Positions 2,451 to 15,673 of a stretch of DNA of 45,337 nucleotides are shown here, piece by piece; the stretch's first letter is position 1; the number at the start of each line of letters is the position of its first letter. Source of the stretch: a virus (Duplodnaviria; Heunggongvirae; Uroviricota; Caudoviricetes); IMG/VR virus record IMGVR_UViG_2721755660_000004. One strand, 5' to 3'. The notes under the pieces are model-generated. The model was not told the origin of the DNA and searched no databases. It saw nothing but the letters and a program-made list of their open reading frames with translations. The translations under genes were made by a program, and so were the position numbers.

Positions 2451-3278
2451 TTATTTAACCTGGATAAATGGTGTATTTGCACCGCTGGTCATGTATTGCG
2501 GCAGTGTGCCGTTCCATTTATTGATGGCTTCCAGCTCCATAACACCGGGGTTCTGGCGCAGAGCTTCACCGCGTAAACGAATAGCATCGGCTTCGGCCTG
2601 GGCTTTTGTGCGAATCGCATCAGCCTGTCCGGCAGCTTCCGCGCGCAACATGTTGGCCTCCGCTTCACGTTGCTTGACTTCCTGCTCGCGCTGCAGGGTT
2701 TTCTGGTTTGCCGTGACTTTGGCGTTAATGCTGTCGATAACGGTTGGAGGGTATTCCGGTTTACCTACATAAGAGAGGCTCATTACCTGAATGCCGATGG
2801 GTGTCATCTCTTCCTGAATGTCTTTAAGTGCGGCATCCAGTAGTTCAGACTTGCCGCCGTCGATAAATTTGTCAGTGGTCATTTTGCTGGCCAGCCGATT
2901 GAGTGCGTCGGCAATTTTCTGGCGCAGGTCAGTGTCGGTAATGTCATCCACGCCTTTGCGGTAGGTCTGAAACACCGTGGTAACTTTGGATGGATCAACT
3001 TTGTAGGCCACACCGATGTGATAGCCGATGGTTGTACCGTCACTCATCTGGAAACTGAACGGTTCATCGTAGGTCTTCATTTGTTTGAAGGTGGGGAAGA
3101 TATAAACTTCAGTATTCCAGCCAGTCCAGTAGCGACCAACACCGACCACCTCACCGACGCCTTTGTCGTCGCCTAGTTTATTTACCTTGATGCCAACATT
3201 ACCTGGTTCAACGCGATCGCAACCGACAAGGCCAATAGTCGGCAGAACAATGGCTAAAGCAAAAATAATTTTTTTCAT
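2451..3278 (-). CDS. SPFH/Band-7 (prohibitin/HflC-like) domain lipoprotein (275 aa)
   Basis: Signal peptide with lipobox LVGC at residue 20 and Asp at +2. SPFH-like core, then an Ala/Glu/Arg-rich coiled coil (REQEVKQREAEANMLRAEAAGQADAIRTKAQAEADAIRLRGEA). AAGGA SD. Confidence 0.85.
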   Translation of the reverse strand: MKKIIFALAIVLPTIGLVGCDRVEPGNVGIKVNKLGDDKGVGEVVGVGRYWTGWNTEVYIFPTFKQMKTYDEPFSFQMSDGTTIGYHIGVAYKVDPSKVTTVFQTYRKGVDDITDTDLRQKIADALNRLASKMTTDKFIDGGKSELLDAALKDIQEEMTPIGIQVMSLSYVGKPEYPPTVIDSINAKVTANQKTLQREQEVKQREAEANMLRAEAAGQADAIRTKAQAEADAIRLRGEALRQNPGVMELEAINKWNGTLPQYMTSGANTPFIQVK

Positions 3279-3463
3279 CTTTTATCCTTAGTGAAAGAAA
3301 GACCCTTGTAAATGGCATAAATGCAGGGCGGGGTCAGAAACGCCAGTGCAAAGCAAGAAATAACTGCTATCGTATCCTTCATGGATATAAGGAACGGAAC
3401 GAGTAATCCGTAAATGCATGCGATAATTGCCAGTAAAATTACTATTGTGAAATACAGTCTCAT
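3275..3463 (-). CDS. Small 2-TM membrane protein (62 aa) coupled to the SPFH gene
   Basis: Two hydrophobic helices. Its stop overlaps the SPFH start (ATGA). The SD is weak. Confidence 0.6.
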   Translation of the reverse strand: MRLYFTIVILLAIIACIYGLLVPFLISMKDTIAVISCFALAFLTPPCIYAIYKGLSFTKDKR

Positions 3464-3615
3464 TGGTCTGTGGTATCCCGATATTTTTAACCGACTGACA
3501 GCGCAATAAAGAGAATAATGATTTCAGTTAGTGTCAGTACTGTGGCAAGGATTAAAATCAGTTTTACTCTGTTTAATTCACGGTTGCTTTTTATATAAAC
3601 GGTTAGTAAAAGATG

Positions 3616-3632
3616 GAAGAATTATATTCTTC
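3616..3632 (-). terminator. Hairpin GAAGAAT-TAT-ATTCTTC with T-rich flanks on both strands
   Basis: Perfect 7-bp stem 8 nt after the stop of the 3640-4221 gene. It separates that gene from the SPFH cassette. Confidence 0.4.
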
Positions 3633-3639
3633 TTAATAT

Positions 3640-4221
3640 TTAATGTGTCACTGGCGCTTCTGGCATACCATGAGTATTCAGGTCGTTCATCATTTCATCC
3701 AGAAGGAGTTCAAGCCCTTCGCGCCCCATAGCAGAGACAATGAAACCATTATTAGGATCTGCGATGAGCATTTTTTGATAGAGAAACAGAACTCGCCCCA
3801 TGCCTTCAGCTTCACCATATTTTTCAATAAATCCCCATTCGACATGGTTTTGCAGGGCAATGCGAAGTGGTCCTGGGTATATACTCATGCAACCATGCTT
3901 CCCCTTATAAATAACTGCGCGATCTGTAGTTCCGTTATCGTTAGGGATATCAACAGTGCCGTTCTTGTCTTCCTCTTCATTTATAAATGTTGTCACATAC
4001 AGCCATCGCCATTGAGCAACCTTCATATCGACTGAAAATCGTCCCAGTAATCCGGCATCATCGGCTTCAGCAATACATTGCATAATTCTTAAACCGTGAG
4101 AATTTGGATAATCGTATTCACCATCATTAAGTCGCTGTACGGCCTCAACATAATCAATGGTTGTATTGCCAATTTTTATGCCATGTGGCGTAACTTCTGG
4201 TCGGAAATCTGAATGATTCAT
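3640..4221 (-). CDS. Hypothetical protein (193 aa from MNHSDFRPE)
   Basis: AAGGAA SD 8 nt upstream of the ATG at 4221. ATGA overlap with the upstream ORF. AT-rich by eye. No family recognised. Confidence 0.7.
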   Translation of the reverse strand: MNHSDFRPEVTPHGIKIGNTTIDYVEAVQRLNDGEYDYPNSHGLRIMQCIAEADDAGLLGRFSVDMKVAQWRWLYVTTFINEEEDKNGTVDIPNDNGTTDRAVIYKGKHGCMSIYPGPLRIALQNHVEWGFIEKYGEAEGMGRVLFLYQKMLIADPNNGFIVSAMGREGLELLLDEMMNDLNTHGMPEAPVTH

Positions 4222-4406
4222 AATGTTTGTTCCTTTGCTGGTGGAATAATCGTGTAGCCAGCTCTTTTTGCCATCCACAGAAATGTATCCATGCAGCCAA
4301 CGAATTCATTATCCAACAGATGTTTTGAGTAAATTACTTCACCATTTTCAATGGTTAGCAACACTCTTACTTTTTTATGTGTTATGTTTTGTTGTTTTTC
4401 TTTCAT
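4218..4406 (-). CDS. Hypothetical protein (62 aa)
   Basis: GGGAG SD 8 nt upstream. Translationally coupled (ATGA) to the downstream 193-aa ORF. Confidence 0.6.
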   Translation of the reverse strand: MKEKQQNITHKKVRVLLTIENGEVIYSKHLLDNEFVGCMDTFLWMAKRAGYTIIPPAKEQTL

Positions 4407-4410
4407 TTAT

Positions 4411-4524
4411 TTATCTCCCATATGCTTTGCGCAAATACAGGTTGGCTATATGAAGATAAGAATCTCCATGTTGTGCAATGAGGCAGGCAGTTTTATACGA
4501 TGCCTTATGTTTCAGGAAAGTCAT
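4411..4524 (-). CDS. Possible small basic protein (37 aa, hand-translated: MTFLKHKASYKTACLIAQHGDSYLHIANLYLRKAYGR)
   Basis: AGGAG SD 7 nt upstream. Its stop lies 4 nt before the next start and contains that gene's SD. Confidence 0.3.
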   Translation of the reverse strand: MTFLKHKASYKTACLIAQHGDSYLHIANLYLRKAYGR

Positions 4525-4602: not shown

Positions 4603-4974
4603 TTATTGCGCTAATTCTTTTTCGGCAGCAGATTTTGCATATTCACATGCAAAATTCAGAATTTCGCTGCCAAGTGTTTTTGTTTCGTGATTACTGGACA
4701 TATGTAATACCTGTGTTGCATGCAATAAATGATAAACATTTACCGCAAATGAATCAGGCTCCAGACAAATGCCTTCATAATCATCTTGTTGTGAGGTTGT
4801 TTCTGTCATTGCTCCTGAAGTGCATGCGAGCCTGTTTTTGACAATTCTCTTTCCTCTAAACACGATATCGGCAACTTCTATTGCTTTTATAACCTCCGGG
4901 AGAAGATCCGGGTTTGCATAATCAAAGTCATCAACATGGAGAGCAGTTATGTTTTCGAACTTTTTCGTGCGCAA
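4603..4974 (-). CDS. Hypothetical protein (123 aa, TTG start)
   Basis: ORF with a TTG start preceded by GGAG. The start lies 28 nt inside the 3' end of the upstream HTH gene. No family recognised. Confidence 0.55.
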   Translation of the reverse strand: MRTKKFENITALHVDDFDYANPDLLPEVIKAIEVADIVFRGKRIVKNRLACTSGAMTETTSQQDDYEGICLEPDSFAVNVYHLLHATQVLHMSSNHETKTLGSEILNFACEYAKSAAEKELAQ

Positions 4975-5381: not shown

Positions 5382-5412
5382 GAGATGATACCTCAGTTAC
5401 GAACTTTGTTTT

Positions 5413-5460
5413 ATGGTAACTAAGGTATCAAGGCGTGGCAAGTGATTTTTGATACTTTGG
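5413..5460 (-). promoter_or_regulatory. Putative PL promoter with OL-type operator half-sites
   Basis: On the minus strand: -35 TTGCCA (5441-5436), 17-nt spacer, -10 TACCAT (5418-5413). Inverted 7-mers GTATCAA (5425-5431) and TTGATAC (5449-5455). The 12-mer TTGATACTTTGG (5449-5460) is repeated exactly at 6188-6199. Confidence 0.5.
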
Positions 5461-5484
5461 TTTCTTTTTGTGTTTTGAGTCTGG

Positions 5485-6141
5485 TCAGAAAATATCCCAC
5501 CTGGCATCAACTACAACACCTACTATTTCGCAATCATTGTCCATTTCTATGATTGGATATTGTGGATTAAGGGGCTTTAGAAACGCCTTTCCCATTTCAG
5601 AAATATATTTTTTGAATGTTGCTTCATTGGTGGATTTTTTTCTGGCGATGACGTAACACCCTGAAAAAACTTCTTTATCTGGGTTGACAAGGATCGACAT
5701 TCCTTCAGGAAATGTTATTCCTACGGGCGAAGTCATTGAGTCTCCGTGCACTTCCAGCCAGAACCCCCTATCACCAGCGTATTTTACAGAATGCCTCCAG
5801 TTATCCTGATCATACATGTTGTAGTCATCACCAGCAGTTGCGAATAATCCTGCCTGAACCCAGTTAATTACAGGGTAAGAGTGTGCTGTGTCTCTCTGTG
5901 GGCAGCTCTTAACATTATTTTCCCAATGCTTATCTTTTTCATCTCCGCTCTGAAGCCACTGCGGTGAACACTGCAGTGCAGCTGCGACTTTAAAAAGGGT
6001 GTCACCGTTGAAACTTTTTGTAAGGCCTTGCTCGGCTTTACTGATTGCAACTCTGGTGACCCCTGCTTTTTTAGCCAACGCATCTTGCGTTAACCCAGCT
6101 TTTTGTCGTGCGTTGATGAGGCGTTCACCTAAAGATTTCAT
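5485..6141 (-). CDS. cI: CI-type prophage repressor: N-terminal HTH plus C-terminal S24 (LexA-like) autopeptidase (218 aa)
   Basis: HTH (GLTQDALAKKAGVTRVAISKAEQG) and S24 motifs (GDSM..., later KK). AAGGAG SD before the ATG at 6141. Divergent from a cro-like gene. Confidence 0.9.
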   Translation of the reverse strand: MKSLGERLINARQKAGLTQDALAKKAGVTRVAISKAEQGLTKSFNGDTLFKVAAALQCSPQWLQSGDEKDKHWENNVKSCPQRDTAHSYPVINWVQAGLFATAGDDYNMYDQDNWRHSVKYAGDRGFWLEVHGDSMTSPVGITFPEGMSILVNPDKEVFSGCYVIARKKSTNEATFKKYISEMGKAFLKPLNPQYPIIEMDNDCEIVGVVVDARWDIF

Positions 6142-6163: not shown

Positions 6164-6236
6164 CTGATACTAAAGTAACAGAATCTCTTGATACTTTGGA
6201 TTCTCGCGTTTAACATTCTTGGATAACAGAGTATCC
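6164..6236. promoter_or_regulatory. OR-type divergent control region (putative PR, with operators)
   Basis: On the plus strand: -35 TTGATA (6188-6193), 17-nt spacer, -10 TAACAT (6211-6216). TTGATACTTTGG (6188-6199) is identical to the OL copy. A related CTGATAC lies at 6164-6170, and GGATA-N6-TATCC at 6221-6236. Confidence 0.5.
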
Positions 6237-13084: not shown

Positions 13085-13735
13085 ATGAATGCACGAAAGG
13101 CGGTATTGGCAGATAATCCGGAATTGATCCTGCGTGTGCTACAGCTGAGATTTGACGAGTCACTGTCGTACCCGCGCATTTCTGCGCAGACTGGTGTCAG
13201 CAAAACCGCCATTTTTTCTCTGGTGAGGCGATTTCACCAGGTATTCACTGACTGGCCCCTTTCCGGTGAATATTCCTGCGGGCAACTGGCCCGGGCTCTT
13301 TTCCCGGGGCGATATCCTTCAACCCCGACCGTGACTCAGCCTGTGAAAGCAGAGAAACCCCGCCGGAACCGATTTTCACCGGAGTTTAAATGGAGACTTG
13401 TTCAGCGGACTCTTTTACCCGGTGCCTGTGTCGCACAAATAGCTCGTGAGAACGGAATCAACGATAACCTGCTCTTTAACTGGCGGCATCTCTGGCGTAA
13501 CGGCGGCCTGCAGCCGCCCGGCGAACATGAAACATCGCTACTTCCCGTGACGTTAACTCCGGAGCCGGATAATAAAATCCCGGCACCAGTGCAGATACCT
13601 GAACAGATAAATACACTGCCAGACAGTCTGTGCTGCGAGCTGGTTCTGCCGGCCGGAACTCTCAGGCTGAAAGGTGAACTGACACCGGCGTTATTACAGA
13701 CACTTATCCGCGAAATGAAAGGGAGCAGCCACTGA
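13085..13735 (+). CDS. IS66 accessory protein TnpA (orf1; 216 aa, HTH)
   Basis: Contains the IS66 orf1 pattern RFSPEFKWRLVQRTLLPGACVAQIARENGINDNLLFNWR. Confidence 0.85.
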   Translation: MNARKAVLADNPELILRVLQLRFDESLSYPRISAQTGVSKTAIFSLVRRFHQVFTDWPLSGEYSCGQLARALFPGRYPSTPTVTQPVKAEKPRRNRFSPEFKWRLVQRTLLPGACVAQIARENGINDNLLFNWRHLWRNGGLQPPGEHETSLLPVTLTPEPDNKIPAPVQIPEQINTLPDSLCCELVLPAGTLRLKGELTPALLQTLIREMKGSSH

Positions 13736-14082
13736 TGATATCTCTCCCTGCCGGTTCACGTATCTGGCTGGTTGCCGGTATCACCGACATGCGAAATGGT
13801 TTTAACGGCCTGGCATCAAAAGTTCAGAACGTCCTGAAGGATGACCCGTTCTCCGGGCATCTGTTCATCTTCCGCGGACGCCGGGGTGACCAGATAAAAG
13901 TGTTGTGGGCTGACAGCGACGGACTGTGCCTCTTCACCAAACGCCTGGAGCGGGGCCGCTTCGTCTGGCCGGTCACCCGCGATGGAAAGGTTCACCTTAC
14001 TCCGGCTCAGTTGTCCATGCTTCTTGAGGGCATCAACTGGAAGCACCCGAAACGAACGGAACGCGCTGGAATCCGCATATAA
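13735..14082 (+). CDS. IS66 accessory protein TnpB (orf2; 115 aa)
   Basis: Hallmark IS66 orf2 sequence: IWLVAGITDMRNGFNGLASKV...FIFRGRRGDQIKVLWAD..GLCLFTKRLERGRFVWP. Confidence 0.9.
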   Translation: MISLPAGSRIWLVAGITDMRNGFNGLASKVQNVLKDDPFSGHLFIFRGRRGDQIKVLWADSDGLCLFTKRLERGRFVWPVTRDGKVHLTPAQLSMLLEGINWKHPKRTERAGIRI

Positions 14083-14101
14083 CCCGATGTAAAGTGAGGA
14101 T

Positions 14102-15673
14102 ATGGACACCTCACTTGCTCATGAGAATGCCCGCCTGCGGGCACTGTTGCAGACACAACAGGACACCATCCGCCAGATGGCTGAATACAACCGCCTGCTC
14201 TCACAGCGGGTGGCGGCTTATGCTTCCGAAATCAACCGGCTGAAGGCGCTGGTTGCGAAACTGCAGCGTATGCAGTTCGGTAAAAGCTCAGAAAAACTTC
14301 GTGCAAAAACCGAACGGCAGATACAGGAAGCACAGGAGCGAATCAGCGCACTTCAGGAAGAAATGGCAGAAACGCTGGGTGAGCAATATGACCCGGCACT
14401 GCCATCCCCCCTGCGCCAGTCTTCTGCCCGTAAACCGTTACCGACCTCACTTCCCCGTGAAACCCGGGTTATCCGGCCGGAAGAGGAATGCTGCCCGGCC
14501 TGTGGTGGCGAACTCAGTTCTCTGGGATGTGATGTGTCAGAGCAACTGGAGCTTATCAGCAGCGCCTTTAAGGTTATCGAAGCACAACGTCCGAAACTGG
14601 CCTGTTGCCGGTGCGACCATATCGTGCAGGCACCAGTACCTTCAAAACCCATTGCACGCAGTTATGCCGGAGCGGGGCTTCTGGCCCATGTTGTCACCGG
14701 GAAATATGCAGACCATCTGCCGTTATACCGCCAGTCAGAAATATACCGTCGCCAGGGCGTGGAGCTGAGCCGCGCCACGCTGGGGCGCTGGACAGGTGCC
14801 GTTGCTGAACTGCTGGAGCCGCTGTATGACGTCCTGCGCCAGTATGTGCTGATGCCCGGTAAAGTCCATGCCGATGATATCCCCGTCCCGGTCCAGGAGC
14901 CGGGCAGTGGTAAAACAAGGACTGCCCGGCTGTGGGTCTACGTCCGTGATGACCGTAACGCCGGTTCACAGATGCCTCCGGCGGTCTGGTTCGCGTACAG
15001 CCCGGACCGGAAAGGCGTCCATCCACAGAATCATCTGGCCGGTTACAGCGGTGTGCTTCAGGCCGATGCTTACGGTGGTTACCGGGTGTTATACGAATCC
15101 GGCAGAATAACGGAAGCCGCGTGTATGGCTCATGCCCGGAGAAAAATCCACGATGTGCATGCAAGAGTGCCCACCGACATCACCACGGAAGCCCTGCAGC
15201 GTATCGGTGAACTGTATGCCATAGAGGCAGAAGTCCGGGGATGTACAGCAGAACAGCGTCTGGCGGCAAGAAAAGCCAGAGCTGCGCCACTGATGCAGTC
15301 ACTGTATGACTGGATACAGACTCAGATGAAAACACTGTCGCGTCACTCGGATACGGCAAAAGCGTTCGCATACCTGCTGAAACAGTGGGATGGCCTGAAC
15401 GTGTACTGCAGTAATGGCCAGGTGGAAATCGACAACAACATCGCAGAGAACGCCTTACGGGGAGTGGCCGTAGGCCGGAAAAACTGGCTCTTCGCGGGTT
15501 CCGACAGCGGTGGCGAACATGCGGCGGTGTTGTACTCGCTGATCGGCACATGCCGTCTGAACAATGTGGAACCAGAAAAATGGCTGCGTTACGTCATTGA
15601 GCATATCCAGGACTGGCCGGCAAACCGGGTACGCGATCTGTTGCCCTGGAAAGTTGATCTGACCTCTCAGTAA
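14102..15673 (+). CDS. IS66-family transposase TnpC (orf3; 523 aa)
   Basis: N-terminal leucine-zipper region, CPACGG zinc motif, HLPLYRQ motif, and a DDE core ending ...[25 protein letters not shown]. Confidence 0.92.

Follow-up and report, generated by a model that had tools for sequence, protein, structure and literature searches.

The antirepressors GfoA, GftA, and FsoA bind the short, non-cleavable Gifsy repressors and strip them from the DNA (Lemire et al. 2011, PMC3121763). FsoA is encoded in the left operon of Fels-1, where it is controlled by the cleavable CI-like repressor FsoR and induced by DNA damage; it is dispensable for the induction of Fels-1 and inactivates GtgR, the repressor of Gifsy-2 (PMC3121763). 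Rem, encoded by the Qin prophage of Escherichia coli K-12, was discovered by its resemblance to GfoA and FsoA of Salmonella; it is an antirepressor of DicA and raises dicBp-lacZ 165-fold (Ragunathan et al. 2023, PMC10448788). In P4, plasmid copy number is controlled by another small gene, cnr (PMC8628076). Here, we analyzed three adjacent genes, named A37, B62, and C193, located at positions 3640-4524 of the IMG/VR virus record IMGVR_UViG_2721755660_000004, a stretch of 45,337 nucleotides (the window) that belongs to a phiP27-like E. coli prophage integrated at yecE. By sequence comparison, the middle gene encodes a homolog of FsoA, and the last gene encodes a remote relative of Cnr. Protein lengths are given in amino acids (aa) and isoelectric points as pI.

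4411-4524, minus strand: A37, a basic microprotein of 37 aa with an ATG start and a pI of 9.8
4218-4406, minus strand: B62, 62 aa, homolog of the FsoA/GftA/Rem-type small antirepressors, phrog_340
3640-4221, minus strand: C193, an acidic protein of 193 aa, phrog_1515, with a pI of 4.8 and a net charge of -13

B62 was assigned in PHROGs to phrog_340, a family of unknown function (E 3e-24), with no match in Pfam, NCBIfam, or PADLOC and none by sequence in the PDB. A profile search started from it collected 444 relatives, some of which (P0264, P0270, and P0281) carry a precomputed match to the Pfam family PF27490, 'Rem', marked as weak in the case of P0270. The gene fsoA itself was located by exact mapping of the published primers le154 and le162 onto NC_010391 (Fels-1), where it corresponds to STM0898.2n, at 3494-3730 on the minus strand. 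BLASTP aligned B62 with FsoA at 54% identity over a core of 37 residues (E 1.7e-12), and the hidden Markov model (HMM) of the B62 family matched FsoA with an E value of 7.8e-24. Over the whole Gifsy-1 genome, the top match of the same HMM was the copy of GftA downstream of dinI (E 0.0056), and the second was the C-terminal end of a protein whose annotation reads antirepressor-like. Profile alignment by hhalign gave the B62 family scores of 29.2 with GftA and 26.7 with Rem (the latter with a probability of 53% and E 1.4e-4), levels that 0/150 shuffles reached, compared with a maximum of 18.5 for 95 unrelated open reading frames (ORFs) of the window.

B62 falls among the small (about 60-85 aa), single-domain proteins encoded by prophages, and its AlphaFold2 (AF2) model shows a single beta-hairpin and a helix (predicted local distance difference test score, pLDDT, 85). 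A core pattern made of a hairpin, E-F/L-V-x-S, a helix, and A-G-Y/F is common to B62 and Rem, although the relationship is distant; Rem has 83 aa, and its gene is in the right arm of Qin, close to hokD/relBE. Like B62, FsoA is a small single-domain protein whose gene belongs to the left operon of a phage with a cleavable CI/S24-type repressor, and in its operon fsoA is preceded by a homolog of A37 and by a gene related to C193; the two proteins differ in length (78 aa for FsoA compared with 62 aa for B62), as B62 lacks the N-terminal segment of FsoA. The Gifsy antirepressors GftA and GfoA differ in being controlled by LexA and encoded outside the immunity region. Sequence similarity thus makes B62 a homolog of the proven antirepressor FsoA and a member of its family. 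An earlier note on this DNA had recognized no motif in any of the three proteins; for the middle gene, profile comparison now points to a known function, an outcome that the note had named as counting against its own reading. By analogy with FsoA, B62 may act as an antirepressor on a DicA/GtgR-type repressor of a co-resident prophage.

Several other affiliations of B62 were considered and rejected. Weak PHROG matches connected it to the C-terminal parts of two 'anti-repressor' families, phrog_4792 and phrog_2379; hhalign against three neighboring ORF6N proteins, performed with the idea that B62 corresponds to the C-terminal domain of ORF6N antirepressors, was negative, as was the comparison with P4 epsilon, and the name 'DUF905' given in UniRef to one relative of B62 was not reproduced by a Pfam scan. 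In some loci, a gene for a ParE_like protein (PF24732, 72-73 aa) overlaps the end of the FsoA-like gene (L008 3370-3591, L097 5182-5400, and L099 5185-5406). This succession, found in CharmingMan, L097, and L098/L099, resembles an antitoxin-toxin pair. A type II toxin-antitoxin pair was discarded for the window, where no toxin gene is present 3' of B62 and C193 follows instead.

C193 belongs to phrog_1515 (E 2e-92), and its family comprises 138 representative clusters at 50% identity, with a median net charge of -12. Its AF2 model (pLDDT 89.7, predicted template modeling score 0.85) corresponded to no known fold by structure search, its sequence had no match in the PDB, and no DNA-binding or catalytic motif was found. 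Klebsiella, Aeromonas, and Morganella phages encode homologs between cI and int, in many cases beside ORF6N proteins. Members of the family are also present in elements with integrase, AlpA, and primase genes resembling P4-type satellites or phage-inducible chromosomal islands (PICIs), in which they (L092 7001-7642 and L096 3844-4458) lie directly upstream of a Toprim/D5_N or DUF927 replication (primase/helicase) gene, a position similar to that of cnr. When the family HMM was run against P4, it matched ORF106, that is Cnr (Pfam DUF5375). Alignment of the C193 family with P4 Cnr by hhalign covered 62-102 columns, nearly the whole of Cnr, with a probability of 70-75% and E values of 2.5e-5 to 4e-5; the score of 33.7 compares with 11.5 +/- 2.1 for shuffles (0/150 reaching it) and with a maximum of 21.6 for 95 unrelated ORFs. 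In addition, both families share a histidine at the extreme C-terminus, mostly after P-V/T-x, in 40/41 C193-family and 50/51 Cnr-family sequences, the latter set being given as 49 homologs plus P4 Cnr. Proteins of phrog_1737 (120 aa) in turn matched residues ~70-185 of C193 (hhalign probability 67%, E 5e-5).

These similarities indicate that the core of C193 (residues about 65-193) is remotely related to Cnr, making C193 a long-form relative. C193 differs from Cnr in being twice as long, with an extra N-terminal region of ~65 aa and a beta-hairpin insert, and in being encoded in the left operon of a lambdoid phage without an alpha-type primase. Comparison of C193 with P4 ORF151 was negative, and the longer family members, searched for domain fusions, contained no informative Pfam domains. 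In Klebsiella phages (MK416014, MF695815, and others), C193 homologs are annotated as '2-polyprenylphenol hydrolase/flavodoxin oxidoreductase', a name that no search supports and that looks like an annotation error copied between records.

A37 is a conserved, largely unannotated microprotein. It is predicted to form a helical hairpin and is present at 53-81% identity in Salmonella Fels-1 and in Klebsiella, Aeromonas, Cronobacter, and other Escherichia phages, the homologs showing an in-frame indel of 2 aa and an invariant C-terminal L(R/K)KAYG(R/K). Comparison with PDB sequences gave only a weak resemblance, to a single tetratricopeptide repeat. The gene is left unannotated by the Prokaryotic Genome Annotation Pipeline (PGAP), in NZ_CP013663, and in many GenBank phage records, and in Fels-1 the homolog (L102 4285-4389) falls in an apparently empty gap of the annotation. 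In E. coli, a protein of 110 aa (P0210, found in 3 contigs) is a natural fusion of A37 and B62, generated by a frameshift just 5' of the A37 stop.

All three genes are real and under purifying selection. The ratios of nonsynonymous to synonymous substitutions, taken against divergent alleles with saturated synonymous divergence, were 0.06-0.12 for A37, 0.17-0.24 for B62, and 0.12-0.25 for C193. We retrieved 80 loci with C193 (67-100% identity) from IMG/VR and counted neighbors where the flank was present. Wherever the flank covers them, a gene for a helix-turn-helix (HTH) protein similar to L10, then A37, B62, and C193 follow one another in the same order in 80/80 loci, and L08, a further small gene, is found 5' of A37 in all loci with a covering flank except one. 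The annotated relatives PhiR49_2, Stx1a, and Stx2 phages show the same order, though the genes downstream differ; in all, the order of the three genes was constant over about 85 related loci. Sequence related to the region is present in 319/5426 complete E. coli genomes; as the families also extend to other genera, the label of 'orphan' that the earlier note had given to these ORFs was wrong, and the ORFs, which it had proposed to check in relatives, proved to be conserved and intact.

Genes similar to A37 and to fsoA were found together in phiP27-type loci, the Klebsiella type, CharmingMan, L097, L098/99, and Fels-1, and every sampled left-operon variant that has both also has C193 or the shorter phrog_1737 gene. 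The most compact arrangement of the trio is that of phiP27, and operons of the Klebsiella type have extra genes between the three. In Aeromonas phage AsXd-1 (L007), A37, C193, and phrog_1737 are present, with no detectable FsoA-like gene. The association of the trio is therefore recurrent, not obligatory. Literature searches by accession numbers and by PHROG/Pfam identifiers found nothing.

The organization of the block is that of a translationally coupled unit, whose tight junctions are kept in relatives. The longest ORFs found mechanically begin farther upstream, at TTG or GTG, and homologs begin at the ATG codons used here. At the A37-B62 junction (GGGAGA-TAA-ATAA-ATG), the stop of A37 lies 4 nt 5' of the B62 ATG, within its Shine-Dalgarno (SD) region, and B62 and C193 overlap by ATGA. 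In relatives, the A37 stop and the B62 start are separated by 4 nt in 52 loci and by 2 nt in 30; B62 and C193 overlap by 4 nt in 53 loci and are 5 nt apart in 29. SD-like sequences precede the three starts: AGGAG 8 nt 5' of A37, GGGAG/GGAGA 7 nt 5' of B62, and AAGGA 9 nt 5' of C193. The GC content of the block is 40.3%, compared with 50.6% for the window, and only 3.3% of equal-sized windows are as low. The chaining of ORFs of 37, 62, and 193 aa, the SD sequence of each, and the AT-richness, which the earlier note had judged by eye, were thus borne out by the computation.

The window region is 95.7% identical to the Stx2e phage phiP27 and 100% identical to prophages of three complete E. coli genomes; in E. 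coli strain GB089, the prophage adjoins a DUF72 gene at the yecE/yecN/cmoA locus. On the minus strand, a cI-like repressor gene is followed by L10, L08, A37, B62, C193, a weak hairpin, and genes for a 62-aa membrane protein and an SPFH lipoprotein, with DUF5406 and DUF4222 proteins next and, finally, xis and int. The elements that surround the block are the following (OL and OR designate the left and right operators, and PL the leftward promoter).

5485-6141, minus strand: cI-like repressor of the cleavable type, with Peptidase_S24 (E 1.6e-22) and HTH_3 (E 1.3e-14) in Pfam, named 'LexA family protein' by PGAP
5386-5465, no strand: OL-like operator cluster and promoter-like site, between cI and L10
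4947-5381, minus strand: L10 homolog, HTH protein of 144 aa (Pfam HTH_3, E 6e-11), first gene of the presumed PL operon
4603-4809, minus strand: L08 homolog, 68 aa from the PGAP start, PHROG phrog_5451/4587, directly upstream of A37
3616-3632, minus strand: weak AT-rich hairpin with a T-run, 3' of C193, perhaps a weak terminator or the boundary of a module

A 17-nt direct repeat, TTGATACTTTGG(T/A)TTCT, is present at 5449-5465 and 6188-6204, on either side of cI, and TGATAC half-sites are found in the inverted repeats I1 and I3 at 5386-5431; together they are candidate OL and OR operators. A promoter-like TTGCCA-17-TACCAT lies upstream of L10 (5441-5413, minus strand). The position of the block in the early-left operon, as read in the earlier note, was therefore confirmed, the block being downstream of an S24-type cI with operator-like repeats and a promoter-like site between them. 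As the OL/PL layout is the expected one, the lysogen probably does not express the block until cI is cleaved. The L10 relatives carry one or two HTH copies, and L08, considered as a possible copy of the N-terminal domain of L10, showed no similarity to it within the window.

At the other end of the block, the hairpin at 3616-3632 (GAAGAAU-AUA-AUUCUUC, then CAUCUUUU) indeed exists as the earlier note had it, and it is weak: its folding energy is -4.9 kcal/mol (z = -1.7), 11/200 shuffles fold equally well, and a terminator scan passed over it, its G-C pairs being too few. Relatives in which the membrane-protein/SPFH module comes next keep the hairpin, and those with other genes in this place lack it. 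A hairpin between L08 and A37 was no better than shuffles (z = -0.03). Beyond the hairpin, the 62-aa membrane protein (phrog_1130) and the SPFH/Band_7 lipoprotein of 275 aa (2451-3463, minus strand) form a separate module, and locus L097 has the same pair behind another variant of the left operon. Farther to the right, the window carries replication genes resembling those for O, DnaC, and DnaB, together with an IS66-family insertion, RusA, and a Q-like antiterminator. At 13085-15673, three successive ORFs (216, 115, and 523 aa) with strong PHROG transposase matches and an IS66-like organization form an insertion that separates the DnaB-like helicase gene from the RusA/Q-like genes.

Considering these results together, we propose, at what we judge to be even odds, that the trio is a conserved, coupled left-operon set, repressed by cI and expressed upon induction, with co-resident prophages or satellites as its targets. 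The cleavable cI would keep the left operon off in the lysogen; DNA damage would lead to cleavage of cI, PL would fire, and all three proteins would be made. B62 would then bind a short, non-cleavable repressor of the DicA/GtgR type and remove it from its operators, as FsoA of Fels-1 does, the most likely target being the repressor of a second prophage carried by the cell, whose induction would in this way be coupled to that of this phage. C193 would most likely bind a protein partner by means of its helical core and the conserved C-terminal P-V-x-His tail, the partner plausibly being a protein of replication or regulation. A37, which travels with the antirepressor gene, is probably an accessory subunit or modulator. 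The homology of B62 to FsoA and the remote relation of C193 to Cnr make regulators of other prophages or satellites the likely targets, not host defense.

Several observations weigh against this proposal. YpjJ, YeeT, and YkfH of K-12, proposed from their similarity to FsoA, failed to derepress dicBp (PMC10448788), and therefore candidacy based on searches is no guarantee of activity on a given repressor. The segment missing from B62 amounts to the first ~30 residues of FsoA, so that its activity and target could differ. For C193, phrog_1737 gave no direct match to Cnr, and 0/41 family members reached the gathering threshold of Pfam PF17345 (DUF5375), for which P4 ORF106 scores 210.9 bits; therefore, the link to Cnr is at the level of a superfamily, not of membership. 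The replication module of the window is of the O/DnaC/DnaB type, with no alpha-type primase, and C193 sits in the left operon, not upstream of an alpha-type primase/helicase gene. Morganella prophages and P4-like elements have C193 but neither A37 nor B62, and therefore the three need not act together. Finally, the promoter and operators are pattern matches, and the yield of the promoter scan did not exceed the chance expectation; nor was a terminator detected 3' of cI, which makes expression by read-through in the lysogen possible.

Cnr acts by binding the P4 alpha protein. A more specific version of our proposal would make the trio a dedicated cassette for dealings with other mobile elements, in which, upon induction, B62 would wake neighboring prophages of the DicA/GtgR type, C193 would simultaneously bind and throttle the primase or initiator of P4-like satellites or PICIs of that cell, and A37 would serve as a shared adaptor. 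This version we consider very unlikely; if true, its C193 part would be a phage-encoded anti-satellite function.

The suggestion of the earlier note, that these genes have a counter-defense or host-manipulation role, would make the trio a cassette that inhibits host proteins of defense or housekeeping, for example RecBCD, restriction systems, or the division machinery, in replacement of gam/ral/kil. The early-left position, the AT-richness, and the lack of exo/bet/gam fit with it, since no homologue of these was found in the stretch from integrase to cI or, on the rightward side, in the ORFs scanned as far as 17.8 kb, in agreement with the earlier note. C193, strongly acidic and without DNA-binding or catalytic motif or known fold, is also typical of protein inhibitors. 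The genes of the block resemble the accessory genes of the lambda PL operon (gam, ral, kil, sieB, cIII) in being located between the immunity region and xis/int, small, and translationally coupled. Similarity to any of these lambda genes, or to other known anti-defense proteins such as Ocr/Ard, was found neither in Pfam, NCBIfam, PADLOC, and the PHROG functional categories, nor in the PDB by sequence or fold; the sole member with an experimentally characterized homolog, B62, is related to an antirepressor, and the genes are a conserved operon core across genera, not a variable accessory island. We found nothing that supports such a role and regard it as unlikely.

The antirepressor could also be directed at the phage itself, with B62 acting on its own regulators, such as L10, to lock lytic development, and C193 and A37 tuning the phage's own replication or expression. 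Rem targets the repressor of its own prophage (PMC10448788), the HTH of L10 is DicA-like (38% identity to DicA residues 1-69, E 3e-15), almost all loci of the E. coli type have an L10-like HTH protein and L08 ahead of the block, and in Klebsiella-type phages A37 is directly 3' of an HTH gene. On the other hand, FsoA, the closest characterized homolog, has no detectable role in the induction of its own phage (PMC3121763), and L10, in which the HTH stands at the C-terminal end after an extension of 60 aa, is without the C-terminal domain of DicA/GtgR-type repressors. Moreover, L10 varies more (58-100% identity) than A37, B62, and C193 (88-100%), which argues against tight co-adaptation, and we take this explanation to be rather improbable. 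That three unrelated small genes merely share an operon, B62 being a decayed or retargeted remnant of FsoA, would agree with the occurrence of C193 alone elsewhere, with the genes interposed in Klebsiella-type operons, and with the shorter N-terminus of B62; purifying selection on all three, the conservation of translational coupling, and the recurrence of A37, FsoA-like, and C193/phrog_1737-like genes together in the sampled variants having A37 and B62 homologs make it quite unlikely.

What is new here, as judged from sequence comparison, is the recognition of B62 as a member of a known antirepressor family and of C193 as a long-form relative of Cnr. This gives testable leads for hypothetical families, connecting phrog_340 with the FsoA/Rem antirepressors and phrog_1515 and phrog_1737 with Cnr, and adds a conserved 37-aa gene that standard annotation has missed in RefSeq and in numerous phage entries, that of Fels-1 among them. 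Prophages of the phiP27-like type and related ones carry Shiga toxin genes, and Shiga toxin-producing E. coli strains harbor many prophages. If the trans-acting antirepressor function proposed for B62 is true, SOS induction of one prophage could co-induce others, and such co-induction would affect toxin release and gene transfer.

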